A stretch of DNA of 64,000 nucleotides from Botryllus schlosseri (taxonomy: Eukaryota), in NCBI GenBank assembly GCA_051294905.1, contig CM119371.1, positions 20,090,001 through 20,154,000 on the forward strand. Reading direction: 5' to 3'. Each line of letters starts with the position of its first letter. Positions within the stretch are counted from its first letter, which is position 1. The notes under the pieces were generated by a model. That model saw only the letters and a list, made by a program, of their open reading frames with translations, searched no databases and had not been told where the DNA came from. Made by a program: the position numbers and the translations under genes. Below are positions 24,751 to 63,351 of the stretch, in pieces.

Positions 24751-25720
24751 GTAAGGATTGTAGGAGATTATATTATTAAGGTGTTCCTTCCTGTTAAGTC
24801 TTAAACCGAGTAGTATGTTATATATGACGGATGGAATTTCGTACGTGTTGATATTGATTGTGAGATGAAATATGCGTATACCCCTCTAGTAGTATGGTTA
24901 TATATTCTGTGAAAGACAAGTAACGAAAAATGAGATAATATACTTTCACATCCGGTGATCTATTTATAACGACACGTTTTTAAAATGTTAAATATCAAAT
25001 ATATCGCGTCAGGCCGATATTCCATAACTGGTTGCCTTTCTACATATACTGATGTTTGCCTGTCCGTATTAATCAACGCCAGTTTGGCATGTATAATGAC
25101 TTTGAATTCGTGGTTCATTCGAGGTAAGTCCGCGATAGAACTTTTAATGCGATACCATCGGTAATCCATGAAGTATACCGTTATCGAAAATTTGGAATGC
25201 GCATGAATGTTAAACTGGTGATGTTTAACTTGTTACAAAAAACGATACTATTCTACTTAAACATTCTCCTAATCAGGAATTCACAATCTCAGTTTAGGCC
25301 CCATTAGTCGAACATTGGTAGCATTAAGATTTGGATATATCCCATAGGTAGTTTGTACCTTATAAAGTTCACCACGGTGTGTCATATAGTCGGGCAACTG
25401 CTTTATTCGGCCATAATGATCGAGAATGCGAAAAAAGCAAGAGTTACATAGATAAAACTCAGTTAATTCGGAATACTATCTGCTCAATTCAGGGGCTAGC
25501 AATTGCTATCGTTAGGTTATGTCGAAATACAGGACTTGGTTCGTCTAACCCAGGGATTCCCAAACTGGGGTGGCGACCCTAATGGGATCGTTTGCGTATT
25601 CTCTGGGGCCTCGGAGACAAAAATTAAATACTAATGATTATTACATGAATGACAATTAATAGCTATCAGCAGCTCATTTCTGTATATTTAAATTCAATTG
25701 AATAGTATATTCATATTGAA

Positions 25721-25761
25721 ATGAACCCGAATATTTTCGACTGACACTCGTCAGGGGTAAT
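25721..25761 (-). ncRNA. Minimal type I hammerhead ribozyme motif (minus-strand arm)
   Basis: attaccc-CTGACGA-g(tgtcagt)c-GAAA-atat-TC-gggtt on the minus strand; predicted cleavage between 25729 and 25728. Confidence 0.6.
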
Positions 25762-25963
25762 CGTCAGCAACTAGTAGAGAATTCAAAAGAACAGCGTGTA
25801 TCAACAATCGCAACACAAAATATGACGTCACCGGCACGAAATGTCGAATACGAGAGCGTTCAATGTACTATTTTTATTCGACATTTCGTGCTGGTGACGT
25901 CATATATTGTGTTACGATTGTTGATATACGCTGTTCTTTTTAATTCTCTACTAGTTGCTGACG

Positions 25964-26004
25964 ATTACCCCTGACGAGTGTCAGCCGAAAATATTCGGGT
26001 TAAT
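25964..26004 (+). ncRNA. Minimal type I hammerhead ribozyme motif (plus-strand arm)
   Basis: Stem I attaccc/gggttaat; core CTGACGA (25971-25977); 1-bp stem II; GAAA (25987-25990); palindromic ATAT loop III; UUC cleavage triplet ending at 25996. Confidence 0.65.
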
Positions 26005-26845
26005 TTCAATATTAATATACTATTCAATTGTATATTGAAGTTCTGTACATCCAAGAAGCTGTTCAAATATTTCATTTCATTTTTCAAAATAGAGGACAAC
26101 ACTGTTTCTGAGGAATGCGAACCCGGCAAACAAGGTTTCAGATCAGTCGAAGTGTCATTTTAAATCACCCCCTGCTGTGACTTACAGTTGATGTCTGGCA
26201 ATCCATGAAGAATAAAGCGTTGGGAGCGTAATAAAAATTAACGAGACGGAATTTTTCCTTGCAGGCAAACTACAAGTGACCAGAATTGTTATGTGTTAAC
26301 AGTATGATAAATACACACACGTTCGGCACAGCCCGATAACTTTTAGATCGTCGTCTGTATTTCGCGGGATGCAGTATTTTGCGTAGCATTTATTGACTAT
26401 ACATCGATTGGATGAAGATAGAAATCGTTCCAGAAGACCTATATACATTGCTATAGTCTTTATAGAGTTTTTAATCTATAGAACGGAGGTTAAAAAGTTA
26501 TTAATTGCTCTTATTGCGCACGAAAACGCCAGTTTCGCACATTGGCATAGGTTTGGCGAGGGTGCTGACCATTTTTCAGTAAACTGCACGCCAAATTGAG
26601 ATGTGGGGTCGCGCAACATTTTCGAATCGAAATGTTTGCGAACCCTTGGTCTAGCGCAAGATGAGGAACTATGGTGAAACAATGACGATGCATTTAGTAC
26701 CAATCCACTACGAAGTCATGTAAGGCCGTGCATGTTTCAAAGTCGCTTTTATGTCGATACAAGTGTGTCCAGAATGGTAAAGAAAAAGCCGTTTCAATCA
26801 TTGTTTCATGGCTTAGTACTATGCTTGAAAATCACTTTATTATTC

Positions 26846-29267: not shown

Positions 29268-29752
29268 TTCTAATCTAATGAATATAAAACAGAAAAAGTA
29301 GATATTTGGCTTTCCGTTGGTATGCAAGAGAAAGTAAGCGGAAGTAGCCACGTGAATAAGTAGCGTGAATGGGATAGCTGGAGTCTATACTTTCATGTTT
29401 CGAAATATAAGAAGTACTTCGCTACTCTGGGACTACTATCTGGATCTCATAGTGTTATTGCAAAACATATTCCTATATACTTGTTCTATGTTCGCTTATT
29501 TTACTTCCCATGCTGTTAATATACAAGAGGAAGTAAGCGGGCATAGTCAGTCGAGCAAGTAGCACGAATAGGTTAGTTGGAGCCTATACTTTGATGTTCC
29601 GAAAAAGAAGCACTTCGTTATTGTAGATATCCTGTCTTTGTGTTACTCCGAAGCATGTTGGCCATTCTTATATTTTTGCTCCATCTTCGCCCTTACAATT
29701 AAATTTTAATCTGTGGTCATTTACCAAAACCACATATCGCGTCTTTATTCAG

Positions 29753-29942
29753 ATGTTGTAACGTGTGCTCGCAGCAACTTTATCAGAAGTGCGGCGGATT
29801 GTGGGGTACCGATGGACGATGCGACCCTAAAAAGAGCTTGGTCTGCGTGAAGCGGCCAATTTGTCAGTCGTATACTCAACGGCCTGCTGACCCCATTGCT
29901 ATTCAACAAACGACTGGGGTTTGCATGAAGAAGTATCACGTG
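29753..29942 (+). CDS. IB-domain protein B, coding exon 2 (G-CCNVCSQQLYQKCGGLWGTDGRCDPKKSLVCVKRPICQSYTQRPADPIAIQQTTGVCMKKYHV)
   Basis: Acceptor tctttattcag; splicing rebuilds the GICGCCNVC IB motif; donor GTG|gtgagc at the same position as in paralogs; 111 aa to this point; terminal exon unresolved. Confidence 0.9.
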
Positions 29943-36758: not shown

Positions 36759-38583
36759 GGTAAATGGTATATTAAACATGCTATAAAAAGGTCAGGCTAA
36801 CAACTGCCTAGTGCCTATAAGTCCACAATATCGAATCGTATATTGTGATGTCGTACGTTGTCAGCACTTTCCTATCCTAAGAAAACGGGATCTACTGTTT
36901 TTGTTGTTGCTGTCATTGGTATATGATAGTGTCCATGGTATTGTGTAATCTATGGTCATATAGCATCAAGATGGTGATTATATAAACTAAACCTCCTGAG
37001 GTGCCAACTTCGAGCACATCTCACTTTGATTTTAGGTCAGTGCATCTCAAACGTTCTTGACTCATCGCACCTGATCATGCTCCACATTATTTGACCCCTA
37101 ACATTCAGAGGTGATTAGTAGAGAAATAAGTCTACCCTTCCGGACTACTCGAGTAGTCCTTATATACTTACATTACATAGTCAAGTAGTTTCATTTTCAT
37201 ACACCGAATATAGGCCTACTCACTCGAATTGTTTTGATGATAAATACTATTGTTGCGTTTCAAATTTTGCGAAGTAAAAGTTATTTCTTGGGTGCACTTC
37301 AATCGGTTTTATGAGTGACGAGTATAGGCCCATTTAGGGTATTTAGTGTATCTCCCGCTATGAAGTCAAACACTCACGAGATAAAAATGGATGGAAGGTT
37401 ATCAGTTTAACATCAATGTCCATCGATCAAGAATTCAACTTCGCAAAAACACGAAAATGAAAGCATGAAGACCCGACAATATCGCGTATCTATCGACCCT
37501 CACCATTCCACCAGCCCTTGGTAACAATTGGTGTTGTAGCTGTGAAATGCACGCTGCAACATACACGGCGCCAGGATCCTAAACTTGATATTCTTTAAAA
37601 AGCTATGGTGCTTCAACAATCGATATACATTTCACGCTAGCCTTACATATGAATTATGCTAGATCTTGGTTAAATGTCTTCCGGATTAATATGAATCGCC
37701 AAGTCGCTGGTACACCACTGAAGAGCGGAATCTAGTTCGTTCGAATTCTACTGTAGTATATAGGTTTAACTGTATATTCGGTGTATCCTGGATTCCCAGT
37801 CACCCAAACTGTATAAATAGAGTATTATTGAAGCAAAGAGAGGGTATTGCTATAAGTTGATATAAATTTCTAAAAGTAGGAAATGTTCTAGAAGAATATG
37901 TCGCGACACAAACCTGGGTCGCGAAGGGTATAATTTTCGGTCGTGGGAACGCCATAGCGATCGTTTAATATGTATGTAATATTTGTCGAATTTCTTGCAA
38001 ATATTAAATATCTTCGCGCTGGTAGCGATTTCTAGTGGATGGTTTGCACGTATAGCTAGGGTCAATCTGTGGGTGCGCTGATGAATAAGCGGGGCACGCA
38101 CGAAAGTCGTAAAAATACGAGGTGGCTTGATCGAGGAAATTGGCCGAGCTTTGATACAAAAGTTGATTTGAATTCGTGAAAATGTTCTTTCGACATCTGT
38201 ATCTCTTTGAAACACAATCGGAGACCGTTGGAATTCGTGAGAGTAGAGTTATACCTGGGTATGAGCGATGGCATTTAAAGGCGAGCCCCATTGCGCAAAT
38301 GCGACGTACAGGGGGAAATGCACCCGAATTTGAAAGTCCGTCCGCCAGACATGTTTCATATGACTGCGGTACGTGCAGTTGTTGTTTGCACGGTCTCAAA
38401 TTCATACATACCCGTGAAATCATAGCATACTAATATTGAGAATGCATTCTTCCTGGCGTATGCGGCTTGGGTCGCCAGATGCCAGTAAAACTAAATATAT
38501 AGTGTGTATGAGTGTCCGTGATCACAAAAATCAGTTTATAAATACTGAAATACGATATTATCTGGTTAATTTGTAGCCTTTGT

Positions 38584-38749
38584 AGAACTTTGGTGATTGG
38601 CACAACGCCTTCAATTGCCCATGACTGACCATGAATTTTTCTATCTTATCATAATCATTACGAAGATAGCATATATGATTATGATAAGATAGAAAAATTC
38701 ATGGTCAGTCATGGGCAATTGAAGGCGTTGTGCCAATCACCAAAGTTCT
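38584..38749. repeat. Perfect inverted repeat, 75-bp arms (38584-38658, 38675-38749) with a 16-nt loop
   Basis: Arms are exact reverse complements; absent from the paralog at 54570-54680. Confidence 0.95.
38709..38747 (-). CDS. Secreted cationic Cys-rich peptide C1, exon 3 (NFGDWHNAFNCP*)
   Basis: Acceptor acatttgtcag, phase 0; stop TGA at 38709-38711; same frame and stop in paralog 54638-54676. Confidence 0.7.
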   Translation of the reverse strand, partial: NFGDWHNAFNCP

Positions 38750-39026
38750 GACAAATGTTATATTAAAATCTCGTTGCATCACTGACTTCCGTATTCATTT
38801 CTTCGTTGCTAAAACTTTACTGATTACTAGTTTTATACCCGAATGTCGTCAAGGATACCTGGATAGTATATCCTAGTATGTATTAATTACTTCTGTGTGT
38901 CACTATATTTAGATACTAACAATGTGATGACATTGTATATGAAAACTATTTGAGAAAAAGCTGATCACTAATGCTTGATACCGTCTTATGTGTACTCGGA
39001 GATCAACAAGCACTGTTGTTATTTAC

Positions 39027-39156
39027 CTGACATTGTCTCAAGTGTTTCTTCGTTTTCTTGCACTTCCTGATAGACGGTTTAATCCATCCAGACTTCGAAC
39101 AGAAATGTTCCCGTTTGTTCAGCTTCTTTGACAAACAATATGGTGTACAGAGACCT
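39027..39156 (-). CDS. Secreted cationic Cys-rich peptide C1, exon 2 (R-GLCTPYCLSKKLNKREHFCSKSGWIKPSIRKCKKTKKHLRQCQ)
   Basis: Acceptor gttttcttgcag; donor CAG|gtaaat; 130 nt, phase 2 to 0; identical structure in the paralog. Confidence 0.85.
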
Positions 39157-39536
39157 CTGCAAGAAAACAGCACATGAATTTAGTATGAAGTGTCATCAAA
39201 TCGAAACAATTACCAATGTATTGGAGGCAGGTGTACCAACTGCTGGCGATTCAGTTAATCAGAAACATTTAGAGACTGTCAATTATTTCAAGTTGGCACA
39301 TGTACCTAAAATGTTCCAGCGTACCCACATATACTAAATATCAAGGAAATTAGGAGAATAATTATTTTTTCTTTGGCCATATCTGTTCGGTATTAGCGAC
39401 AAATGCAATCTTACATTCTCGATGATATGTGTTGCCTGTACTTTTCCATTGAATTGTCTATCTAAGTTAGAAAGCATAGAATCCGAGTTGTTAGTCACAG
39501 ATGTTATTTTCTATATGCATCGATATCAATACATAC

Positions 39537-39652
39537 CTTTCCAGTAGTCTGACATTTTTCGATTTGTTCCTAGGCCTGCGGGCCACGGTGCAACGAATTT
39601 CATGACATATCAAGACGCAAGTCAATGCGGCGAGAATGATAGCTATTCTCAT
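39537..39652 (-). CDS. Secreted cationic Cys-rich peptide C1, exon 1 with signal peptide (MRIAIILAALTCVLICHEIRCTVA-RRPRNKSKNVRLLE)
   Basis: aacATG at 39652; upstream acceptor catcgtctacag (39669-39670); donor AG|gtatgt; 116 nt; three exons join to a 94-aa ORF. Confidence 0.85.
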
Positions 39653-40959
39653 GTTGAAATGTTAAGTCCTGTAGACGATGTAAATGCAAATATTGATGTA
39701 TTGTAAATCACGTTTTTATTAGGAATGTGATAAATAGCATCAAGTAGATATTTTACGAGGTGGAGTCGCAAATCTTTAGTTGTTGCTCATTGTGAAGTCA
39801 TTGTTCATTGTTGAGTTACGATTCAAACGTTGATGAAATTAGTTGTTGCGGCAATTTTGCATTACGGCTATATCTCTGTATCCTCGCCAATTTCCAATGT
39901 CGGCTGTGGTAAGTTATTGCATAAATGTCATAAGATTCCGGCTACGAGGCATTTCCTGCATATTTTATGCTTCTGGATTTGAAATCATCTTAATTAAATA
40001 TAGTAGATATAATACATATATCGTGGCTATGGGCTATCCATGGGGGCAATTATTAAACTCATGAAAATGCACAGATCTGGCTACATACATATCAGCAGAA
40101 TAATATGGTTACGGAGGTAAAGATCCGCGTTTAAAAGTTGAAGCCATAATTATTTTACCAGCGCAATGTACCATTGTTTAAGATTCCGAAAACGAAAATT
40201 GTTTTATGTTGTGATAAGAATACCGCACACGATTCATGGTGACGTGATGCTCAGAACAAAGCTTTTCTACGATTTTGCTGATAATTTGGAGATAAATTAC
40301 CTGGAGCGTAGGCTACGCCGCGTGTTATACCAGTTCATATTCGATTGACTGTATTTTAAGGTACCTGCGAGGCAAGCAATACCGGAAATTCTCCTCAGAT
40401 AGCACGAAGTGCAACATTGCTTACAATCACTATGGCACTATCAATGGTGCGTTGGAAATTTGAACGCGACCTTATGATATTATATTGATGATTGTGGCTG
40501 CACTACGTATCCTAGACTCAAGACAAGAGGTCCCAAACACGCGGCCCGCGTCGTCATTTTATATTTTGAAATATTCGACAATATTTAACTGCTACACATA
40601 TATTTCTGTAGCTCTGAGAAGTTAAAATTCGCCTTCTCCAAAACCCTGAGACTGCTCATCAAATTTCACCATCACATCACTTTAAAACGTTACCATGCGG
40701 TGGAATATATGCTTTTACGTCATATCAACCTGTTTATGATGGTGGAACATGACCCGCTGAGGATTCGTGGCAAAAAATTGTGATTGGACTTGGGCGCGAC
40801 TTTTTTGTGGAATTACTCGAATTCGGAGTAAATGGGTGATAAAATAAAAATGAATCGACTTTAGTTGCATCAAACTTTACATTTGAAGAGTAGATTGCGA
40901 CTCAAAACGCCGTGACTAGGTGCGATCACGAACACAACAAACTATCAGACTGCTATGGG

Positions 40960-43379
40960 CATAGGCACCGACTTTTATTTTTGCATGGGGTGGCGGCAAG
41001 CACGTAGCCGGGGGGGGGGGGGGTGTCAAAACCCCCTCCTTTTGAAACGCAAAACCCCGTCCTTTGAAAATCACCATTCTGACGCTAATGTTCAGTTGCA
41101 TTTCAACAAGTCGTATTATCAGTGGTACGCGGGGCCGCGACCAACTAGCGAGATTCGTATGTGCACGCATATTGCATCGCACAATGCAACGCGACGGGAT
41201 CTCCCGCTGGCATGATTGCGGAATTAGGTCATTGATTGCCGCGCACTCGGCATTCGTCGCTGGACTGAGCAGTAACACGGCGCCCGATAATTCTGGAACA
41301 CGAAAGACAGACACAAATTGTGATTGGAAACGTGCACGGCCAATCAGTATTGATCCCTTACCGCCAACACAATTGGTTTTGAGTAGCTCGCATCGCGACA
41401 ATTGGTTGCTGATTACAACATCGATTTTGACTGTATTGCTGCATTTCCCGATCTACGTTCGCAAAGTATAATTGGATTAATATTATGGGCACTGGAATAA
41501 ATTCCAACTAGCAGGCATACGCAATAACACATTGTTCAACTTTGCGCTCCGATAATATTTATCACAAAAATGGTTCACAAAATATTTTTAACGCGGCTTG
41601 CGGCGCTCATCGATGCAAATAATGCACTTCAATTTGCAGAAGGTGGACGTATATTTGGTAGTCAAATCGCGATAGGAGATGGTGTTTCTCAGAGGTCGCT
41701 ATGAAATCTACGTTTCTAACGATGAGGTCGAATCTGTACATCTGATAAGGAACGTAAGTTTGCTGAAATCAGCATCAGCACGCTGTGCGAAATACATAGT
41801 AGTGATCAATTTTATCGGACTGTACAATCGGCCGGCAAGTTGCGCTGATAACGAAATTGCAGACATGCCGCAAACCTGCAATAATTACAATTACAGGGTG
41901 CGCTGGTCATACCTAAATACCCAGATTCGGCAATGGCAACGAGCACAATTTGTTCAGACGCGGGCATACGTTTTAATCAAAACGATACATAAACAGTAAA
42001 CACAAACAATATTACACTCTGAGATTGTTACTGTTTGGCGAAAGGCCTGCATGCGGACGCGCTAAATCAAACCACCGACGATAGTGCACATGAGATGTCG
42101 ATGAGCCATTTCGCATACAAATGATTCTCACTAATTTGCAGTACGCAGCATCGATAATATGAATTAGTGAATTGGCATTTCAAAAAGGACGGTATTTTTA
42201 GTTATAAATGAGAAACTCCCTGGCTACGCACATGGGTTTTTTTATGCCGACAACGTGCTGGTTAATATCAGCCCCGGGCCGTAGGCCCCGATCAGCCAGT
42301 CGAATTTGATCGTAAAATGATGCACTTTTAATTTTCCACGTGTTATTGCAGTAAGAGCAATATGGGCGCATGCCGCGACCTTATCATTAGAAATACATTT
42401 CCCAAAGCTGTGAAATTCGAGCCGCGATATGACTGCGCTCGATATAGTCCGTTCACAAATAAAGTTTATTGGAACATAGAAGGTTTCCGTTGAAACTAAT
42501 CGAATGAATTCAGAATTTGCGTCACCGAGAATCTCGTGTTGCATCAATTTTGACAACGTAATTCAACGCCGTGCACTGCACAATGCGCAGTATTAATAAC
42601 AAATCAAGCACTGACAAGCTGACAAGTGACACCGAGGGAATACGAGGGCATAAAGCAGACAAGAATTGGTAGCCTGGATGATAGCAAACGAGAAAGCGCG
42701 CATCTAATCAATAATTCCCCGACTTGCCTACAGCACAATGGTGTTCCAAGTATGACATCGCGACAATTGTTTGTACATTATAACGACGTTTGAGCTGCAT
42801 TGTTGCGTTTTCCGATAAAAGTTGGCAAAGCCTTGTTAGAGTAATGAATATGCGCACTGTGCGCAGGAATGACATTCAATTCGCAGGCATACACAAGCAC
42901 ACTGTCCTATATTTCGCGCTCCAAGCCTCCGATTGAAGAGACTATCACGGAACTAACTCAAGAATTATTTTGTAAACGAATATGGGCGCAAATACAATTT
43001 AATTAGGAGAAGGAGAACGTGAATTTGCTCGTCTGGTCGAGAGGAGATGGTGTTTCTCAGCGCAAGCGTGTCGAAATCGACGTCGTAAACGAGGTTGCAC
43101 CGATTGTCTGATTATTACCACGGATTACAATTTATCGGTGCGTTTTAAGCACTAGTTCGTCGTCGCCAACGAAGCTGCGTATTCAATTATTCGCACGCGT
43201 ATCGGTGAATGATAAATAGTTGACATTTACGCGCTTTCACGGACTCGCTAATTGACAGCGCTGATGATTTGAAATCGCAGACGGCGGGCGTTTTATCCTA
43301 TTGTATGGGGTGGCCGCCACCCCATAAATGGGTCATGGGGTGGCTGCGCCACCCCGCCACCCGTAACTCGGCGCCTATG
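40960..43379. mobile_element. 2.4-kb non-autonomous TIR element (CATAGGC termini; hAT- or P-like)
   Basis: CATAGGCACCGA / TCGGCGCCTATG; perfect 8-bp TSD GCTATGGG (40952-40959, 43380-43387); probable further nested element 40997-42234 (CGTAGCC/GGCTACG ends). Confidence 0.85.
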
Positions 43380-43922
43380 GCTATGGGGAAAAATATTATA
43401 TCAAAAGGTCGTAGCTTGCGTTGCGTAGCGTATTTAGCTATCTAAGCAGGTCGAAAAGACAATTGCAATCGTTGCTATTCTGCTGCCTCCTTGACTTACA
43501 TCCTATGCCATCTTGGGTTTGTTTATCCAAGTTATTATCGGCAATTAAAGATGGCGAGTGAGGTATTGGTACGCTTCATCGCTGTAACAATAATGGATTC
43601 CTCGGCGATTGGACTGTTTTATTACTATGGTACATTTATCATTATATTGAAGTAATTATTGATCAGTTCCGATAATAGAAGGCAAATCTAACTCCGATGC
43701 ATGCACGTCACGATGCATTTGTACACTAGCAAGGTGTCTACAATTATTTTTTTGTTACAAACTATGCCAAGTACAACATAAATTTATTCAAAATTTTGAA
43801 AATGTGATTTTTTTCGTGTCAGGCGTGAATTCACAATAGTAAATCACATTTCCACGGTGTTTGTGGAATGCCAGTCTGCAAGGTCCCGTCTAATAATGCC
43901 TTCTTGGAAATACATTATATAC

Positions 43923-44301
43923 TCGGGTTACCAAATTTTGAAAATCTGAAAATAGGACACTTTTTCAGAATTTTCAGACTTGCAAAACCGGAGAAGAATT
44001 CTCAGAAAACGGTAAATTTTTCCCACTTTCCCAACTTTCTCGCTCAGCGCCCGAAATATCGACAGGTGGTTGACTAAAAGAAAAGGTCAACTCTCCGCCC
44101 AGCTCCCGAAATACCCGCCAGAGCGTCGTTCGGTGCTGATTTAAGGCATATCAGTCTCATTTTGCTATAAATATGACCTACATTCTCAAAAAATAGGACA
44201 AAATCTCAAAAAGGAGGACAAAAGGGCGTCCTCCGAGGACACTTTCAAATAAGTCAAAAAAGAGGACAAATCCTCCTAAAAAGAGGCGTATGGTAACCCT
44301 A
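43923..44301. mobile_element. TAGGGTT-terminated hAT-type MITE with AGGAC repeats
   Basis: TCGGGTTACCA / TGGTAACCCTA; perfect TSD TTATATAC. Confidence 0.85.
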
Positions 44302-45244
44302 TTATATACCCCTGTTATTGGTGCTGCGGCCCGCGAAGCCATCAAAAACCAGGAAATTGGCCTGCGAGCATATTTGAGCTCGAGACCTCTGCTCAAGGCC
44401 ATGACACAGTTGATGTTACCAGTTAATATTACATCATAGGATGTCTGGTCGACCTAAGCTCAATTGCTAGTCAGATTGGAGCATCGGTTTGTACATGTGT
44501 ATAAATTCTATAGCTCGTCAGTACGGTTTAAAATTCAATCAAATATCAAAGTTTTGCGTTTTGATTTTCAGCGCGACTAAACTTCATTTCACACTCCCGA
44601 ATTCATGTTCAATCGTTACAGATTTCGTACAGATTAGGTACCGAGTCTAAAGCTTATAAGTCGATGGCTATGGATTCGAAACATAAACGTACGGGACTGA
44701 AATACATAACGATGGCGGCATATCGCAGCGAAATTGAAAATAAACCAATTACGTCACTAACAATACGTCATTTGTGGTATTAATTTATCTATCAGGCTAT
44801 ATGAGGTGGAACTGATTCATGCAATTACTGATATACGACATAGTACTCGTCAGTGGTTTGACTCGAGACAGCGATCTGTCGATATATTGCTTCTAGCAAT
44901 GTCGTTAGGTCTGTCTTCTGCCATATTTTTGAAGCATAGGATTTACAATCACTGCATGGTAGGCTATGAGTGAATCATATATCTAAACTAACTGACAGAG
45001 TCGACTGGTTGAGGTGATTGCAATTCTGCAAAAAAAAGTAATTTTTCCGACGACACCACGTCAATTTCTCTTTAATGCGGGTTTGTCTAATTGACATTTG
45101 CAGGAGGGGAAAAAGGGAAATTGCGCACGTACTTCGCCCTGGAATTATTACCGGGAAAGAAACCAGAGCTGAGGCTGTTTCTTGGCGAAAACGAATGTTA
45201 AAAATAGAAAAGCCGATGCAATATTCAAGTCGGTGTGATAGAAT

Positions 45245-45697
45245 TAGTGTTGCATTCAAAACAAAAATCAATTTGAAACAAACATGTATAAATCAAGGCC
45301 CAATTCCAAACATGTTTTTTATTGTTTTATTTTTTCTTATAAGCCATGACGTTCCTAATATTCGATTGTGACGTCAAAATGAATTGACATTTACAATCGA
45401 AAATGTAGGTTAAATATAGCTCCTCTGACGATTGTACTATTAATGTTGAAACGACTATTTTGAGGGTTCCGACCATCCCATATCAATAAACATCGGCTAT
45501 ATCGAGTGGTAATTGTCCGTAGGGTCATACAACATGTTTTTTTGAAAGTATTTACACAATTATGGCAAAATTTTACAACCTGGAAAATAAAAAATAAAAA
45601 TTGAAAAGACCTTTGTTTAAAACACTGTTTAAAACATATTTAATACATGTTTAAAACAAAGTGTTTTAAAACACAGTTTGTTTTAAATGCAATCCTG
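45245..45697. mobile_element. MITE absent from the paralogous block
   Basis: Ends TAGTGTTGCATTCAAAACAAA / TTTGTTTTAAATGCAATCCTG; TSD GATAGAAT vs AATAGGAT; empty site GATAGGAT at ~60650-60657. Confidence 0.75.
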
Positions 45698-46478
45698 AAT
45701 AGGATACGTTCGAACTAGCACTTCGGTGGTAACATTGAGTCATTACTACAGCTCTAAAGTAACACTGATCAGATTAGACATATCATTTGATTATTGAAAT
45801 AAGGCGATCGATCAATTTCTGGGGTGGTGATCTCGACGCCTGCAAAATCACAGATGACGCTACAAATACGAGCAATCTACGAACATTAACTCCGTTACCA
45901 TGATGCGGAGGCTCTTTTACACAGTGATACTGACAATTCCTATTATAATTTTTTTGCAAACTTATTACCTTAAACCGTTTTTTACTTTTCAAAATCTAAA
46001 TTTTACCAACTACTTAGGTTGGCCTGAAAAACTCTTCAAATAGTGGCTAATCCAAGTACCAGATGGCAAAACAGACCTGAGTACTGCTGTATCCAAAATT
46101 CGCTACCCTAAACTACAGCCAAACCCACGGGATCGATAAATGTACGTGACTAATTTGCGAACGCGATAACAGACTGGAGAATATAAACACAGCGTCTTAT
46201 GTAAAAAGAGTTATTGACGCAACCAATCATGTTAGCCTATTCAGTGGCATATCCGTGACTTTAACCGGTAAGATATCTATAGTATTTTAGTATGTCTATA
46301 TTTAACTCGGATCAAGGCTTGCACCTGTATTTATGTATGTATAAGGGGTTTTATGGTGCTCGACTAGTAGGATATTGTGCACCAGGCCTGAGGGAGCTTT
46401 GAATCAGATATGTCTACACAAAACAACATATTCTGCGGCCTTTGTGTGTGTGCAAGTGTGGATTCTATGTCTCTATGG

Positions 46479-53726: not shown

Positions 53727-54637
53727 CATAGGATTAATGCTAAATGTTGTCTAATGTAAAATTACAGCACGACTCTTCTTTCACTATTTACTAATTATGC
53801 GGTTTGGGTGACTGAGAAGCCAGGATACACCGACTACATTAAAACCGATAAATTACAGTTGAATTCGAACGGACTATAGAATCCACTTTTCGGCGGTGTG
53901 CCAGCGACTTGGCAACTCTTCTTTCTCCGAGCGTCATATAATTCAATAATTTCTTCACCATAGCGACATTTTAATATGTATGTAATATTTGTTGAGTTTC
54001 TCGCAAATAAAAAGTTTCTTCGCGATTCGCAGTGGATAGTTTGCACGTACCCGGGGTCAATATGTTGGTGCTATGATGAATAAGCGGGGCACGCACAAAA
54101 GTCGTTACAATACGAGATGGCTTCATGGTGAAAATTGGCCGAGCTTTGCCACACAAGTTGATTTGAATTCATGAAAAGGTTTTATCGACATTGGTATCTC
54201 TTTAAAACGCAATCGGAGACAGCTTGAATGCGTAAGGGTAGAGTTGCCAGGCTACGAGACACAGGTATTTCGAGGCGAACACCTTCCGTGCTAGGACGGA
54301 AATGCGACGTGCAAGTGAAAATGCACCCCAATTTGAAATCACGTCCGCCAGACATGTTTCATAAGGCTGCGATGCGTGTAGTTGTTGTTTGCACGGTCTC
54401 TAATTCATACATGCCCGTGAAATCATAGCATACTAATATTGAGAATGCATTCTTTCCGGCTTATACGGCTTGGGTCGCGAGATGCCACTAAAACTAAATA
54501 TATAGTGTGTGTGTGTATGTGTGTCAGTGATCACGAAATCAGTTTGTAAGCATTGAAATTCGATGTTAATGATGGTAATGATGTAACCTATGCTATCTTC
54601 GTAATCTTTACGATACCATAGAAATAATTAAAGTCAG

Positions 54638-54676
54638 TCATGGACAATTGAAGGCGTTGTTCCAATCACAAAAGTT
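54638..54676 (-). CDS. Secreted cationic Cys-rich peptide C2, exon 3 (NFCDWNNAFNCP*)
   Basis: Acceptor acattcgtcag, phase 0; TGA at 54638-54640; 36/39 nt identical to C1 exon 3. Confidence 0.7.
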   Translation of the reverse strand, partial: NFCDWNNAFNCP

Positions 54677-54963
54677 CTGACGAATGTTATTTAAATATTT
54701 CGTTGCATCACTGACTTTCGCATTCATTTCTTGGTTACTAAACCAATGATTACTCGTTTTATACCCAAATGTCGTCAAAGATACTTGGATAGTAAATCTT
54801 ACAGCAGGTGTATCAGTTACATCTGTATGTCACTATATTTTGATACTAATAAGTTGATTACACTGTATATAAATACTATTTGGGGAAAAGCTGATTGATG
54901 ACTCATGCATGGTACGGACTTGTGTGAAATCGGAGATAAACATGCAGCACTGTTGTTATTTAC

Positions 54964-55093
54964 CTGACATTGTTTTAAGTGTTTCGTCGTCTTCTTGCAC
55001 TTTCTGACAGACGGTTTAATCCCTCCAGACTTCAAGCAAGAATATTTCCTTTTACTCAGCTTCCTTGACAAACAATATCGTGTACAGTGACCT
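54964..55093 (-). CDS. Secreted cationic Cys-rich peptide C2, exon 2 (G-GHCTRYCLSRKLSKRKYSCLKSGGIKPSVRKCKKTTKHLKQCQ)
   Basis: Acceptor gttttcttgcag; donor CAG|gtaaat; 130 nt; lies within ORF 54817-55110. Confidence 0.85.
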
Positions 55094-55471
55094 CTGCAAG
55101 AAAACAGCACATGAATTTAGTATAAAGTGTTATCGAATCGAAACACTTGGCATTGCAGGTGTACCAACTGCTGGCGAGATGGATAGGCCGCGAGTCACCT
55201 GTGAGTGCTTCGGCACTATTTGAACTAAACTATATACATCGCTCCCCTACAAACTTAATAAGTCGCATAGATGGCATGGATGAATCCTGCACTCTTAACA
55301 CAAAAAGTACATTGCCACAATCCGAAAGCTGTTGTAACGTAAATATTTCCTACTTCACCACAGTGATATGCCTCCATAATAATTGGCGTATTTCATCCTT
55401 TTTTAACGAATATGTTTTGTCATCAATTCCGTCATGTGTCAGGAACAATCTCACGTGGACGATACAGTTAA

Positions 55472-57563
55472 GGCCCTAAGGTACTGCTGGACTGACAAAA
55501 TTTTCAATTTTTTTTTTATTGCATAATCCTAAAGTATGAAACTAGTTCCTTTCAAAAATGTATTGCTCTTGTCTGATTTCGAATTAGAAGTATGGTAAAA
55601 TGCGATTTGAAATCCCCCATTTTCGTAGAAAGTCACCCCCCCATACAATTTCATATATTTAGACTCATTCAAAATTGTCTATAATCAGTGGTGGCCCTAC
55701 GAACGGGGGGGGGGGGGGGGGGCTGGGCGAGACTTACCGGGGGGCCCCCCTATAACTATCTATCCGTAACTTCTGCATCGGTTATTATTATCTATCTTTC
55801 ACCAACACAAAGGTTTGCCCAGGTGCTGGCTTCGGCCATGTCAAGGATAGACAACATCAAAACTAAGTAAGTCTACCGCATGGAGAGACGTGATGATTAT
55901 CGGGATACGGGACTTTTCTAACAAATGCAGTGATTTGATGATGATTGACACATCTGTACGGAATCATATTCTTGCTTCGTGCACGGATTTCCATGTTTAT
56001 TCGTCATTATCCTTGAAAAAAGCGCAAAATCCAAATAGGGGGCCCCTTCGACCAGGGGGCCCCGGGCAACCGCCCTCCTCGCCCACCCCAAAAGCCACCA
56101 CTGACTATAATCACTCTGCCGTGCTGATATTATACAATAAATGAAAGAGCCATATCTGTAATCGATGAAGCGTGGCTTTCACAACATTTAGCAGGCCAGC
56201 AGCTGTTCGCTCACCTGGGAATAGCTGCAAGCTGCCAATATTATGAGTGTTGTTTATCATATTGTATATTTTCAAGATTGCCTTGGCATATTTTGGTAGC
56301 TAATCGTTTAATTGACCGGTAAGACAAAGGCATACACTACGAAGGCATTTCGCAATAGGAAAAGATGAAACCATGCAGAAAAGTAAAGTGTACCAGTGGT
56401 TTCGGAACAGCTGAACTGAATAATCAAAGAAATCTTGTGAAAAAGATTGGAGCTTTCACCGCATTCAACATCTGCTAACGGTGGTTCGGATTCGGCGTAA
56501 TCATTTTTCCTAGCAGTTTCTACATTTTGATGCAGTCGTTCCAAAAATACTGAATTGTCTGACTGTGGCTCATCTGACAAAGGATATTGGAACTGCATAC
56601 AGACTACAGCATAAGGATTATGCAACTCAAATTAGTATCAGAATGTCATGATGAAATTGATGCTAAAAATTGTATGTTTGAAAGGTCTCGGAGGGAAATA
56701 TGGATGTAGTATCTTCACCCATACCAACTGCAATAGGTATTTTGACAATGTCGAAGTATTCTTGATATGTTATTTCATATTTACAAGATCTAACTGGTGT
56801 CCAATTCAAGGTTTGCAAATTTTTCGAATACGGTATAGCAGTTTTGAGTAAAAAAATCATCAAATCACTCATACTTTATATGACTTATTTGGCATTTAGA
56901 CACATTCAATTGTCTTCAAATTTGGCTATTTACTGATTTAAGCATGCCTGCACCATTTAAAAGCAACAGATTTCAAACACCTGCTCTACTTTCTCATCAA
57001 AATATTTTTCAATTTTCAAAGTTGATTTTCTCCCACTTCTAGTTTTTGGTAATATTGTGTCACGGGGACAAGAAATTTTGATATCAGAATACCTTCAATC
57101 CTAATCAAACTTGGCTCAGTACAAGTAGTAGGACTGTTCTACCTGCTAAGACTATTACTTTTGCTATAGGGGTTATAGTCAACTTTCTATGCTACCTATT
57201 ATCTGATTTTTATGAAAAAAAATCGAAAATTCGGCACCGTACTACTACAAAACAAATATTTCGTAAAATCGGAAGTTTCACGCATTTCAGCAGGTGCTTA
57301 GAGGCCTCAGGACACTTTATAAAGCATTGCTTAGAATATCTCAGCATCCATCAATGAGACAGGGGTTTCCCCGTGCTAATCGTCCGATTCACCTATCTCC
57401 CCCTCAATTTGGGCCCAAGGAATCATTGTGAAATGCTGAAATTTATACAGCATATAAAGTTGAGTATGAACAGCTTACAGACCAATTTTTGAGAATCTAG
57501 CATTTACTGTTAATAAAATATCGCAATTTGAAAATTTTGTGGGTCTAGCAGTACCTTAGGGCC
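55472..57563. mobile_element. Kolobok-like DNA transposon (non-autonomous or decayed) in the C2 intron
   Basis: TTAA on both sides (55468-55471, 57564-57567); ~36-bp TIR GGCCCTAAGGTACTGCT(G/A)GAC..ACAAAATTTTCAA starting with purines; paralog has a single TTAA at ~39255. Confidence 0.8.
55686..56103. mobile_element. hAT-type MITE nested in the Kolobok-like element
   Basis: CAGTGGTGGC / GCCACCACTG; TSD TCTATAAT vs ACTATAAT; GGGGGCCCC motifs. Confidence 0.8.
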
Positions 57564-57814
57564 TTAATCAGAAGAAACAGGACTGGTAATTATCTTTAAG
57601 CATGCTCCCATGCTAAATATCAAGGAAATTAGAAGAATAATTAATGTTTCTGTGGCCATATATGTTCCGTATTAGCGACAAATGCATTCATACACTGCCG
57701 ATGATATGTGTTCGCTCTGCTTTTCCATTGAGTTTTCTATCTAAGTTGAAAAAGCATAAAATCCAACTTATTAGTTACATATGCTATTTTCTATACATCG
57801 ATATCAATACATAC

Positions 57815-57930
57815 CCTTCAAGTCTTCTGACATCACTCGATTTGTTTCTACGCCTGCGGGCCACGGTGCAACGAAGTTCACAACATATCAAGACGCAAGT
57901 CAATGCGGCGAGTACGATAGCTATTCTCAT
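57815..57930 (-). CDS. Secreted cationic Cys-rich peptide C2, exon 1 with signal peptide (MRIAIVLAALTCVLICCELRCTVA-RRRRNKSSDVRRLE)
   Basis: ATG at 57930; upstream acceptor catctcgtgcag; donor GG|gtatgt; 116 nt as in C1; joins to a 94-aa ORF. Confidence 0.85.
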
Positions 57931-59035
57931 ATCGAAATTCAAAGTCCTGCACGAGATGTAAACGCCAAAATTGATGTTTTGTATGTCACATTTTCATTAG
58001 GGATGTGATAAATTGCATCGAGTACGTAGCTTACGATGAGCAGTAGCAAATCTTTAATTGTTGCTCATTATGAAGTCATTGAAATTAGGGTGTTGTGGGC
58101 AATTTTGCATTGCATTAGATCTCTATATCCTCGCCAATTTCCAAGGTCGACTTTTGTATTGCATAAATGTTACAAGAGTCCGACGGCGAGGTGTTTCCTG
58201 CTTACTTTATGCTTCGAGATTTGACATCAACCTAATTAAATGTAGTGTATATAGGACATAAATCGTGACTGTGGGCTTTTCTGGATATAAGTAATGTACT
58301 CAGGGAAATGCACAAATCTGGCTACATACATATCTACTATACTATCTACATACTATCATACTAAAACAAACTTTACATCATTCATGTTCTGGGCACAAAT
58401 GCTCAAATAGGTGATAAGTGCCAAAGACTGTTCAATTAAGACTAAACATCAGCATATTAATATGGCTACGGAGGTAAAGAACCGCTATTAATAGTTAAAG
58501 ACATAATTGTCTCACCAACGCAATGTAAGTAACCATTGTTTAAGATCTCGAAAAGTGTTTCATGTTGTAACAAAGAATACCGCACACGTTTCAAGGTGAC
58601 GTAATGCTCAAAACAAAGATTTTCTACGATTTTGCTGATCATTTGGAGTTGCATGATCTGAAGCGTATGCTACGGCGCGTGTCTTACCACTTCATGTTCG
58701 CTTGACTGCACTTTACGGTAACTGCGAGGCAAGCAATACGGGACATTCTCCTCAGACAGTACGAAGTACAACATTGTTTACACCCACTATGACATTGCCA
58801 ACGGTGCGTTGGAAATTTCCACGCGAACTTATGGCATCATGTTGATGACTATAGCTGCACCAACCTATACTCAAGGCCATGCGACAGGTAATGCTACCAG
58901 TTTTCTTATATCAGAGGTCGTGTCTGGTCGACTTAAGTTCAATTGCTAGTCAAAATGGAGCATCGGTTTGTACATGTGTTGTGTATAAATTCTAAGGCTC
59001 GTCAAAAATCAAAATTTGGCGTTTTGAGTTTCAGT

Positions 59036-59970
59036 CAGTGTTGGGATGACTCGAGTCATGACTTGACTCGAGTCAGACTTGAGTCACCTTTTTCGTATGA
59101 CTTGACTTGACTCGAGTCACTTTGTTAAAATGACTTGACTTGACTTGACTCGGCGTATTAGAAATGTGGTTTGACTGGTGACTCGGAGCAAAATGCACGA
59201 GTCAATTTCAAGTCATGAAGTAATCGGTGTCGATAGAAATCACTGTATCTTGCACATGGTCGTATTGTTCGCGAAACGCTGGTGTAACCCGTGAGAGCGA
59301 CCAATCATTCAATGATCGTGCGCTTTACTGAGACTCCATTGCTCTCTCACAAATAAATTGACCGCATACGAAGTGATCGAAGTTTACAGCTTACGTTATC
59401 GTAAGCTAGTTTAGTAAAGTAATGTAATTGCAAAAGGTCAATTTCTGTTCTCTGCTGTTACCTTAACCAAATATCTTGTTTCATTTTGAGCTTCAATTCG
59501 AATATACAATATAGTTTGTATGGTCCTCAACTATTGGCGCAGGGTCGAATTGTATCATATCAATTTAATACTGGATGATGTATTGCATCTTGTCTTGTCT
59601 ATTCTCTATTTTGACAGGTAACTAGAAACTTACGTAGTTCAACAGTTCTACGTACAAGTGAGCGATACAGGGCCTTCTTGCGTGCATATTTAACTCTATC
59701 AGAATCAGTCACCACTTAATGTGTATTCCAGACAGCTCGCAAGATACAAAGACGTAATCATGCCTCATACTTCGAATAGGCAACTTGACTTGAATTGTTA
59801 CTTGACTCGTGACTTGACTTGACTTGACTCGACTTGACTCGAGTCACCTGCAAAAATCGAGTGACGTGACTTGACTCGAGTCACTTTCGAAAATCGACTG
59901 ACTTGACTTGACTCGAGTCAAAATGTGCAATGACTCGTGACTCTAAGATAGTGGCTTGATCCCGACACTG
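59036..59970 (+). mobile_element. hAT-type element with GACTCGAGTC/(GACTT)n arrays
   Basis: TIR CAGTGT(T/C)GGGAT; TSD GTTTCAGT vs GTTTCAGC; empty site at ~44565-44572. Confidence 0.9.
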
Positions 59971-60813
59971 GTTTCAGCGCGACTAAAATTCATTTCACAC
60001 TCAAGAATTCATGTTTAGTCGTTAATAACAGATTTCGCGTCCCCTGTTTAGGCATTAAATTGTCGAGAGCTTATAACTCGGTGGCTGTGGATTTGAAATA
60101 TAAACGTATAAGACTGAAATACATATCGATGGCTGCATATCACAGCAAATTGAAAATAAATCAATTACGTCCCTAACAATACTCCATTTGTGGTAATAAT
60201 CTATCAATCTGAATGTCTGAGTTGAAACGGATTCATGCAATTACTGATATACGACATAGTACTCGTTAGTTGCTTGACTCGAGACTACGATATTCCGATA
60301 TATTGGTTCTAGCAATGTCGCTATGTTTGCCTTTTGCCATACTCTTACGGCATAGGATTTACAACCACCGCGTCGTAGGTATGAGTGGATCATATATTTG
60401 AACTAACCGACAGAGTCGATTGGTTGCTATAATGGCGATTCTGCGAAAAAAAAAAGTAATTTTCGCGACGAAACCACGTTAATTTCCTTTTATTATGTTT
60501 TTTTTTTTTCAGATGACATTTGCAGGTGTGGAAATGGAAATCGCACACATACTGGAATTATGACCGACAAAGATACCATAGCTGAAGCTGCTTCTGCGCG
60601 ACAGCGAATATTGGAAATACAAAAACTGACGCAATATTGATGTCGGTGTGATAGGATACATTTGAACGAGCACTTTGGTGGTAACATTGAGTCATAACTA
60701 CAGCTCTAAGGAAACGCCGACTAGATTGGAACTATCATTTGAATATTGAAATAAGGCGACAGATCCATTTCAGGGGCGGGGATCATGATGACTACAAAAT
60801 CACAGATGACGCT

Positions 60814-61118
60814 GGGAAGCGAGTGGCGCAGTTCGTTAAACACTGCTGTCACGACACCAATGGTTGCTGGTTCGAGTCTCGGCTCTCCCCTGTTTCTATG
60901 TGTCGGAGGTTTATCTGGGCTTTTCAAGGCGCTGTATTTACAGCGGGATCGGCGATGAGGAGAGAGAAGAAGAGAGAGCTGAACTCTGGAAAGATGGCAG
61001 CTAAAGACCAGAAAAACGAAGCAAGAACGCAAAAGACATTGTGTTAATGCAATTGATGTGCTGGGCGCAAATAACCATATGGCGATAAGCGCCAATGTTG
61101 TGAATAAAACAAACAAAC
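60814..61118 (+). mobile_element. tRNA-derived SINE with (AAAC)n tail
   Basis: A-box TGGCGCAGTTCG, B-box GGTTCGAGTCT; ~12-bp imperfect TSD ACAGATGACGCT / AGAGGTGACGCT; empty site at ~45850-45861. Confidence 0.85.
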
Positions 61119-61402
61119 AGAGGTGACGCTAGAAATAGTAGCAATTTTCGAACATTCATTCCGTTACCGTGATGCAGAGGCTCTTTTACACAATGATACT
61201 GACCATTTCTGTTATAAAATTCATGTAATGTTAGAACCTAAAACCGATTTTTACTTTTCAAAATCTAAATTTTAACTACTACGTAGAAGGGCCTGAAAGC
61301 ATCTACAAATAGTGGCATAGTCTGAGAACATTATCATGTGAGTAGTACCGGATAGCAAAACCGACCCGAGTACTGCTGTTGCCGAAATTCGCTACCCTAA
61401 AC

Positions 61403-63081
61403 CAGTGTTGGGATCAAGTCACTACCTTCGAGTCACGAGTCATTTCGAGTCATTGCACATTTTGACTCGAGTCAAGTCAAGTCAATCGATTTTCAAAGGT
61501 GACTCGAGTCAAGTCAAGTCACTCGATTTTTGGAGGTGACTCGAGTCAAGTCGAGTCAAGTCAAGTCAACTCACGAGTCATGTCACAATTCAAGTCAAGT
61601 TGCATTTTCGAAGTATGAGGCATGATAACGTCATTTCCTTTTGCTAGCTGTCTGAAATACAGATTGAGTGGTCATTGATTTTGAACCGATGAACGAATGT
61701 AGAGTTAAATATACACGCAAGAAGGCGCTGTATCGATCACATATAAGTAGAACTGCTAATCCTCGGTTTATAGTTACAAGCCAAGATAGAGAATAGATAC
61801 GAATTGATAAGATGCAATACATTGCGCATTGGCAAATCGATATGATACAATTCGAGCCAGCGTCAATGGTTGAGGACTATAGGGTTGCCATACGTCCGGA
61901 ATTTCCCGGACATGTCCGGAATTTCACTGTTCAAGCTAGCGTCCGGGAGGAATTTCTAAAATATGCCAAATGTCCGGAATTTTGAAGACTTGACGTAGGC
62001 TCATAATTTTTTCGTAAATCAACATAAAAACATTATTTTTAGGACTATATTTATGCTGATGCATGATATTTTTCTTCGCGCTGCGCGCGATTTACAATAA
62101 CATTCATTGATTTTAATATGGAGACTACCACTCTCGTAAAAACTGCAATAAAATATATATATATATAAACAACCTTCATTTACTGGAATAAGCCTAATTG
62201 TAATCGGAGAACGGTATATTCCTAGAGATTGTTGAGGCCGTTTAAATGCTTTATTCAAAGATAATGTTTCCGAACGTGGGGCTCGTTTGGCTTAATTCTG
62301 GGGTTTGCGAATAGGTTGAACGTAATCAGGTTCCAGAATTGCCCGTGAGGAAGTCTGGGAAAGGGTGCTGACTTCTTTTAGTAATCAGTTCGTCAAATTT
62401 TGATCTAGGCCACGGAACATTTTCAAATTGGAGATAGAGTCGAGACCATAAAAGGTTGGAAACCACTGGATCTGTTACCCAACATATAGCCACATACTCC
62501 TGAACCGGATCGTGACCACCTCTGGTCTATGAGCAAAGCTATTCTAGTGGGACGTCATAACTCATTTTGGAATCCACTAGTGGCCGCTGAAGAGCGTCCA
62601 TAATTTGGGTCGCAGAAATATGGTAACCCTAAACTATATTCGAATTCAGTTTCACAATAGGTTTGGTTATAAAGGTAAAAAAAGAGAACAGAATTTACTT
62701 TACTATACTAGTTTACGACAACGTAAGCTGTAAGCTTCGATCACTTCGTTTGCGGTCAATTCATTTGTGAGAAAACAAGGCAGGCTCAGTAAAACGCACG
62801 ATCATTAAATGATTGGTCGCTCTCACGGGTTACGCCAGCGTTTGGCGAACAATCCGAACATAAGCAAGATGCAGTGATTTTGATCAAAGCCGATTACTTG
62901 ATGACTTGAAATTGACTCGTGAATTTTGCTTCGAGTCACGAGTCAATCCACATTTCTGATAGGCCGAGTCAAGTCAAGTCAAGTCATTTTAGCAAAGTGA
63001 CTCGAGTCAAGTCAAGTCATACGAAAAAGGTGACTCGAGTCTGACTCGAGTCAAGTCATGACTCGAGTCATCCCAACACTG
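61403..63081 (-). mobile_element. Second GACTCGAGTC-family element, inverted relative to 59036-59970, with nested insertion 61880-62631
   Basis: TIR CAGTGTTGGGAT; perfect TSD CCCTAAAC (61395-61402, 63082-63089); empty site at ~46106-46113. Confidence 0.9.
61880..62631 (+). mobile_element. TAGGGTTGCCA-terminated hAT-type element
   Basis: TAGGGTTGCCAT / ATGGTAACCCTA; TCCGG repeats; absent from sister element 59036-59970; TSD not preserved. Confidence 0.75.
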
Positions 63082-63351
63082 CCCTAAACTACAGCCAAGC
63101 CCTCGCTATCGATATATGTACGTTCCTAATTTCTTCCTTGCGAACGCGATAATTGGCTGAAGAATATAAACACAGCGTCTTATATAAAAAAGAGTTATTG
63201 ACGCAACAAATCATGTTAGCCGATTCAGTGGCAAGTCCGTGACTTTAACCGGTAGGATATCTATCGTATTTCAGTATGTCTATATTTAACTCGCCTTAAG
63301 GCTTCCGCGCCGTTGTGAAAACAGGAGGGAGTTACTCACCTCACTTTACAG

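Follow-up and report, generated by a model that had tools for sequence, protein, structure and literature searches.

A perfect 75-bp hairpin over the last coding exon of a Botryllus schlosseri peptide gene, probably the scar of a single template switch

The window, by which we mean the whole stretch of 64,000 nucleotides of Botryllus schlosseri DNA that was analysed, contains a hairpin in which the whole last coding exon of a minus-strand peptide gene, C1, is paired with an inverted copy of itself. This hairpin is probably a mutation scar left by a single template switch, with a passive or neutral outcome. Our analysis demonstrates its geometry, the direction of change relative to the tandem paralog C2, and its outer junction in contigs derived from reads.

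RESULTS

Geometry and folding of the hairpin

The features of the hairpin, of C1 and of the corresponding region of C2 are as follows.

39537..39652, minus strand: C1 coding exon 1, with the ATG and a hydrophobic N-terminus that is signal-peptide-like by inspection
39027..39156, minus strand: C1 coding exon 2, bounded by GT-AG, its donor backed by a contig of run X5 that ends exactly at 39027
38675..38749, minus strand: right arm (original sequence), with the acceptor AG, the last coding exon, TGA and 34 nt of 3′ UTR
38659..38674, no strand assigned: loop of 16 nt, inverted relative to C2
38584..38658, plus strand: left arm (inverted duplicate of the right arm, the newer of the two), with the C1 letter at 13 of 13 C1/C2 differences
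38579..38583, plus strand: 5 nt that probably form the outer end of the copied tract, matching the intron end at 38751-38755, with one base missing beside the AG
38500..38578, minus strand: sequence past the return point, collinear again with C2 from 54588 downward
54589..54678, minus strand: paralog C2, ancestral order of exon, UTR and loop, with no hairpin; used as proxy ancestor

The arms had been described in the initial annotation as a perfect 75-bp inverted repeat with a 16-nt spacer, and recomputation gave the same result (38584-38658 and 38675-38749, complementary at 75 of 75 positions). The right arm does hold the acceptor AG (38749-38748), the whole 39-nt exon 3 (38747-38709) and the stop codon TGA (38711-38709). 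Beyond a one-base bulge, the stem extends outward by a further 5 bp (38579-38583 with 38751-38755). In 20 shuffles of the surrounding 3 kb, the longest perfect inverted repeats with spacers of ≤100 nt were 8-10 bp, and the runner-up among perfect short-spacer inverted repeats anywhere in the window measures 17 bp. A chance origin of the 75-bp arms is excluded. The minus-strand RNA of the hairpin folds at -148.4 kcal/mol (z = -22.5), which was equalled in 0 of 200 shuffles, and the corresponding region of C2 has no hairpin and folds at z = -0.88.

A MITE or fold-back transposon was considered and rejected, because both arms consist of the exon of the gene itself and have no match in the window other than C2, the flanks form inverted and not direct repeats, and the depth in the DNA contigs of run X1 is at single-copy level. 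Elsewhere in the window, a second, older inverted repeat is located at 25692-26033, with arms of ~159 bp that differ by ~10 mismatches, a 24-nt loop and no other copy in the window. It may be an old hairpin born of a switch, or else a fold-back element.

The peptide gene C1 and its paralog C2

C1 consists of the minus-strand coding exons 39652-39537, 39156-39027 and 38747-38709, all bounded by GT-AG, which encode 94 residues with six cysteines in the later part of the peptide. The coding exons of C2 (57930-57815, 55093-54964 and 54676-54638) also encode 94 residues, 72 of which are identical to C1, and the two genes lie in a tandem duplication of ~80% identity. Exon 3 had been reported as identical at 36 of 39 nt between C1 and C2; the same figure was obtained on recounting, and the right arm is identical to the same place in C2 at 62 of 75 positions. 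The frame and splice sites of C1 are intact and the dN/dS of C1 versus C2 is 0.53, which does not point to decay.

The C1/C2 duplication spans 37952-46320 and 53958-63304, that is, at least 8 kb, and each copy is interrupted by different insertions. One of these, of ~2.1 kb, lies in intron 1 of C2 (55468-57567), is missing from C1 and has 43-nt terminal inverted repeats (91%) that start with TTAA and then GG. We take the TTAA target sites and GG ends to recall Kolobok-type DNA transposons.

Family searches with exon 2 of C1 returned only DUF7741, below the cut-off (E 0.04), and those with exon 2 of C2 and exon 1 of C1 returned no family. A search of 1.84 billion representatives gave one weak match of 17 residues (P0002, E 3e-4); for the C1 peptide there was no usable Atlas match and no candidate among longer proteins. 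Another cysteine-rich frame in the window, at 29703-29930 on the plus strand, has a weak IGFBP match (E 0.03, 15.4 bits against a cut-off of 28). Upstream of C1, an acceptor-like AG located 16 nt before the ATG (window 39668-39670) is kept in C2, and run X17 shows slight RNA depth near 40320-40510. Both observations suggest an upstream non-coding exon, and the exon that we call exon 3 may be the fourth.

Origin of the hairpin

The plus strand at 38584-38673 aligns to the minus strand of C2 at 54678-54589 (85.6% over 90 nt), and the stretches at 38657-38673 in C1 and 54589-54605 on the plus strand of C2 are reverse complements without a mismatch (17/17). The claim that the loop is the reverse complement of C2 is thus borne out, although the loop as originally quoted took in 3 nt of the left arm. 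Since the left arm and loop match C2 in reverse, the ancestral order was exon, UTR, loop and downstream sequence, as in C2. Between the acceptor and the first downstream anchor that both genes share, there are 169 nt in C1 and 88 nt in C2, a net gain of 81 nt. With C2 as ancestor, a four-point switch alignment scored 177; the linear alignment reached 43.5, and three controls (reversed, complemented and forward fragment) reached 121 each. The scoring was simple and author-made, and the ancestor proxy is a tandem paralog ~18% diverged and not an orthologous pre-event allele. The reverse match to C2, the inverted loop and a switch alignment that outscores the linear one all support the template switch that had been proposed as the origin.

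We read the change as a tract of ~96 nt (38674-38579), copied from the opposite strand and replacing ~15 nt, its extent being judged by eye and by parsimony. The tract is taken as ~96 nt because the 5 nt outside the arm equal the intron end minus one base. Switch points 3, 1 and 2 are clear (C2 54677, 54602 and 54589, respectively). Point 4 lies at 54595 in the computed optimum, which gives the order 3-1-4-2 with a return 6 nt inside the tract, and at 54588 by parsimony, which gives 3-1-2-4; the latter order was obtained by eye and needs the loss of a single base where the alternative needs two substitutions. C2 does not account for one base at the inner junction. On every feature tested, the sequence of the hairpin appears to belong to the template-switch class, with an uncertain exact order of points. 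According to our model, a polymerase copying C1 after the divergence of C1 and C2 would have jumped once to the opposite strand, ~16 nt ahead, and copied ~96 nt backwards, taking in the loop, the start of the UTR, the last exon, the acceptor and 5 intron bases. It would then have rejoined the original template beside the copy start, in an inter-strand event of type 3-1-2-4 (mirror 1-3-4-2).

The same product may also be made away from the fork, by templated inverted insertion during double-strand-break repair (polymerase-theta or synthesis-dependent end joining). The copy start and return point are adjacent, as at a break, both junctions carry one-base errors, and inverted templated insertions at breaks are documented in the accessible parts of PMC11724301 and PMC5728401. 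However, such inverted duplications are mostly 5-34 bp in the available text of PMC11724301, against ~96 nt here, a simple fold-back would not be expected to invert the loop, and the junctions have a microhomology of only 1-2 nt by eye. We therefore regard break repair as rather improbable, and prefer a replication-type switch.

Both arms carry the C1 letter at all 13 of the 75 sites at which C1 and C2 differ. These changes must therefore be older than the copy, or than the last time it was re-copied. Under a simple Poisson model, zero differences between the arms bound the event to approximately the last 23% of the time since the C1/C2 split (95%). The absence of mismatches had been taken as a sign of a recent event, which follows only if the arms were never re-copied; recency is unproven and the bound of ~23% is loose. 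Loop-inverting switches can re-copy a whole arm, as described for hsa-mir-4713 in the accessible part of 10.1101/2023.04.19.537475, and perfect arms hence give the age of the latest switch; the stem itself may be older.

This raises a two-step history, in which the stem arose by an older intra-strand fold-back, and a later switch between strands inverted the loop and copied one arm anew. Such histories are described, in the same available text, for hsa-mir-4713, with a second event of ≤83 bases, and for mmu-mir-3086; in C1, the one-base bulge before the outer 5 bp and the extra base at the inner junction could be remnants of an older stem. If two steps did occur, the hairpin could be much older than its perfect arms suggest. 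Nevertheless, one event explains the arm, the inversion of the loop and the adjacent return point together, and C2 has no trace of a stem, which makes the two-step history unlikely and leaves the single switch as our preferred reading.

The hairpin in DNA contigs

Of 24 listed runs, none of them a small-RNA library by the labels given, four (X1, X5, X17 and X19) were compared with positions 37700-40600. X1 comprises DNA contigs, possibly from the source sample, and is not independent of the assembly. One X1 contig covers 38422-38613 with 0 differences at a depth of 38.8 and spans the outer junction; another, at 38720-39045 (depth 30.9), begins 30 nt inside the other arm. The ends of these two contigs are precisely those predicted for a k=31 graph whose arms are bounded at 38584 and 38749, and one record fits two places, as expected of the arm unit. 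After subtraction of the listed pieces, the residual bin depth was 3454 and 604 depth-bases in the hairpin bins, against 0-7 in three neighbouring bins. This residue is consistent with depths of ~37 for an arm unit and ~17 for a loop unit, a ratio of 2.1, and gives indirect support to the inner junction; as the subtraction covered the listed pieces only, other splits are possible.

The only strand-changing joint at the hairpin in X1 (38507 to 38673) has C2 letters, so that the ancestral order of C2 is confirmed in reads. An ancestral-type joint with C1 letters was absent among the X1 joints listed, and contigs drop rare variants. The depth of the hairpin in X1 was approximately one third of that of its flanks (~17-18 per copy versus ~50 on the flanking C1 contigs), which we read as library drop-out of snap-back fragments; mosaicism or a second allele could also explain it.

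That the inversion is an artefact of assembly or library, such as a fold-back chimera, had been named as the case that would overturn the finding. In its favour, X1 is possibly the source data, the hairpin is less deep than its flanks, and no independent sample among the four runs covers the junctions. Conversely, assembler error is unlikely given the unbroken contig across the outer junction and the exact k=31 ends; an assembler would not be expected to make such words, and a random chimera should be a minor fraction. With C2 letters at the sole strand-changing joint and no listed ancestral-type joint with C1 letters, an artefact is very improbable. In the same contigs, an overlap of 21 nt at 39016-39054 implies a 39-nt stretch common to another locus; C2 shares only 28 nt of it by eye, and another copy may exist elsewhere.

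Transcripts and the 3′ end of C1

X5 comes from another study, its type is unrecorded, and its contigs show neither the strand nor the level of RNA. We infer that it is RNA because its repeats exceed C1 sequence in depth by a factor of only 17-50, against 555-560 in X1, and because its exon-2 contig breaks exactly at the donor 39027. Three X5 pieces are identical to C1, at 38133-38516 (depth 9.68), 39027-39130 (4.5) and 39894-40082 (2.6), with 0 differences over 677 nt in total. The exon-2 contig, of 159 nt, matches exon 2 over 104 nt before it breaks, and C1 is probably transcribed and spliced at this donor. The last 55 letters of this contig were placed nowhere on the stretch. These letters may be exon 3, dropped as a two-place fit, an edited exon 3, for which 14 of the 55 positions are A, or an exon outside the stretch. 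A C2-type exon-3 piece was not placed in X5 either.

X5 had no depth over 38517-39026, which includes both arms and intron 2. Because the gap takes in the intron, low coverage could explain it as well as depletion of the hairpin, and retention of intron 2 was not visible in X5 at this low depth. At 38427-38505, X5 record 12 has letters of neither C1 nor the C2 of the window; it shares two of the C2 differences, has at least two of its own, and is of a type missing from X1. It may represent a diverged C2 allele or a third paralog.

In the run search, no RNA run was listed as containing the sequence, which says nothing on expression. X19 and X17 are raw RNA runs, of which ~6 and ~3 in 100 of each run were read and 14 and 28 reads placed, respectively, many of them on repeats. 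None of the placed reads (0/14 and 0/28) was ≥95% alike, and they are far too few to weigh C1 against C2. At each of three diagnostic sites in exon 2, 4 of 4 X19 reads had the C2 letter. X19 thus shows C2-type transcripts and says little on C1, of which that individual may carry another allele.

Two further features concern the 3′ end.

38133..38516, minus strand: probable C1 3′ UTR beyond the hairpin, a 384-nt C1-identical X5 contig with 0 differences
37964..37969, minus strand: candidate poly(A) signal ATTAAA, 740 nt after the stop, kept in C2 (53970-53975) and beyond the left arm

Another candidate signal, TATAAA at 38540, is also beyond the left arm. A search for 12 poly(A)-like hexamers found none between the stop and 38579, and the transcript therefore probably holds both arms. 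Extension of the 3′ UTR through the left arm, on which the effects proposed for the hairpin had been made to depend, is accordingly probable from the missing hexamers and the C1-identical X5 contig. The opposite case, poly(A) addition before 38658, is unlikely since no hexamer was found there.

Predicted effects on C1 and C2

If the transcript contains both arms, a duplex of 75-80 bp would span the last 13 codons in pre-mRNA and in spliced mRNA as well, since the last two bases of exon 2 are likewise AG. Growth of the transcript was modelled by minimum-energy folding at seven lengths. The acceptor AG paired with the left arm at the two longest, 164 and 169 nt past the acceptor, and at none of the five shorter ones (89-158 nt). 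The stem is predicted to zip from the loop outward, which leaves a window for recognition of the acceptor. The suggestion that the duplex masks the acceptor holds for the two longest modelled transcripts and not for the shorter ones, and X5 has no coverage of intron 2. A duplex over a 3′ splice site can lower exon use, as described for MEGF8 in the accessible part of PMC12519161, which makes partial impairment of splicing plausible. We consider that C1 splicing is probably delayed or partly impaired, and not blocked.

Ribosomes can stall at long perfect RNA duplexes, which can also recruit ADAR or enzymes of the RNase III type. The most likely effect in our model would be a passive cis reduction of C1 output, by poor translation of the last codons or by editing or cleavage of the duplex. 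Such a drop might be tolerated, or buffered, because C2 is intact.

Small RNAs from the hairpin had been expected to match C2 as well. None of the 60 21-mers of the left arm is perfectly complementary to C2 mRNA, and the expectation survives only for imperfect pairing, with one mismatch in 13 and two in 14 of them. On these sequences, trans-silencing of C2 is possible, and less likely than the passive drop in C1. The corresponding functional reading is a hairpin-RNA gene at birth, in which one switch would have created a substrate that is cut by Dicer or Drosha and lowers C1 together with its tandem paralog, providing dosage control. A precedent is D. simulans hp58, a de novo hairpin RNA whose inverted exon fragment adjoins its target, and the accessible text of PMC10317233, which describes it, also reports that arms of hpRNAs are depleted in RNA-seq. 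Consistent with this, X5 is C1-identical on both sides of 38517-39026 and has nothing between, and the 27 left-arm 21-mers with one or two mismatches offer near matches to C2. On this reading, the 55 unplaced X5 letters could come from exon 3 after extensive editing, or from a new terminal exon used because of the hairpin. However, perfect 21-mers to C2 are missing, C2-type reads are present in X19 (with the reservation on its C1 allele given above), and C2-type exon 3 is equally missing from X5. Moreover, the stem is twice the canonical miRNA stem of 30-35 bp (PMC12553114, available part). Considering both sides, we hold a functional hairpin-RNA allele to be doubtful, and keep to a template-switch scar with passive or neutral outcome.

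A canonical miRNA precursor was rejected from the length of the stem (75-80 bp versus 30-35) and from the Rfam matches, 8 of 8 of which were below the gathering score, the best reaching 54 of 85 bits. These miRNA-type matches are driven by the stem.

DISCUSSION

The mutation type that we propose for C1 is already known, as are de novo hairpin RNAs from an inverted exon fragment beside the target (hp58; PMC10317233, accessible part). Like the four-point switches in the available parts of PMC5453318, PMC7954356 and 10.1101/2021.11.26.470150, the C1 hairpin combines an inverted repeat with an inverted spacer from local sequence, an inter-strand switch and a net gain. Type 3-1-2-4 accounts for 23% of high-confidence human-chimp events in the accessible text of PMC5453318. 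Switch tracts have a median length of 12 and a maximum of 128 in hominids (PMC7954356, in the part available), and in humans a mean of 11.56, with per-person maxima of 97-180 unmasked and ≤318 overall (10.1101/2021.11.26.470150, likewise in part). A tract of ~96 nt is in the long tail of these published tracts and not outside it, and lengths given per type in the remainder of PMC5453318 and PMC7954356 could change this rarity.

Unlike typical published switches, the C1 tract takes in an acceptor, a whole terminal coding exon and a stop codon and leaves the protein unchanged; the event is also polarised by a tandem paralog and not by an ortholog. In the literature searched, mostly outside subscription journals and hence weak evidence of absence, no report was found of a template switch capturing an acceptor, last exon and stop together. 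C1 offers a natural case, unusual in its length, of a mutation type already known, with the paralog as a built-in picture of the state before.

Resemblances to functional hairpins are closest for three systems. As with the switch-born miRNA hairpins in the accessible part of 10.1101/2023.04.19.537475, a perfect stem would have arisen in one step inside an existing transcription unit; those hairpins are intron-enriched, annotated miRNAs, whereas the C1 stem of 75-80 bp overlaps coding sequence. As with D. simulans hp58 and hp88 in the available text of PMC10317233, an inverted exon fragment adjoins a homologous gene, and the probable RNA run X5 has a gap over the arms. hpRNAs are defined there by Dicer-2-dependent siRNAs and target derepression, and C1 is known from sequence and contigs only; unlike them, the C1 hairpin is inside an intact coding gene, pairs with the gene's own exon and has no perfect 21-mer to the paralog. 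Finally, as at the 3′ splice site of MEGF8 exon 14, the site is covered by pairing with an arm that lies downstream; duplexes of the MEGF8 type were captured and perturbed experimentally (PMC12519161, accessible sections), while the C1 duplex is predicted, involves a terminal exon and lacks evolutionary conservation.

By analogy, the C1 hairpin would work like a first step in the birth of a hairpin RNA or miRNA. If its effect on RNA is true, C1 offers a natural test of how an animal gene fares when a perfect duplex of 75 bp suddenly covers its acceptor and stop codon, and of whether hairpin RNAs that silence paralogs can originate from template switches. If the birth of a hairpin RNA is true, a template switch gives a one-step answer to the origin of hpRNAs, called an 'ongoing conundrum' in the available part of PMC10317233.
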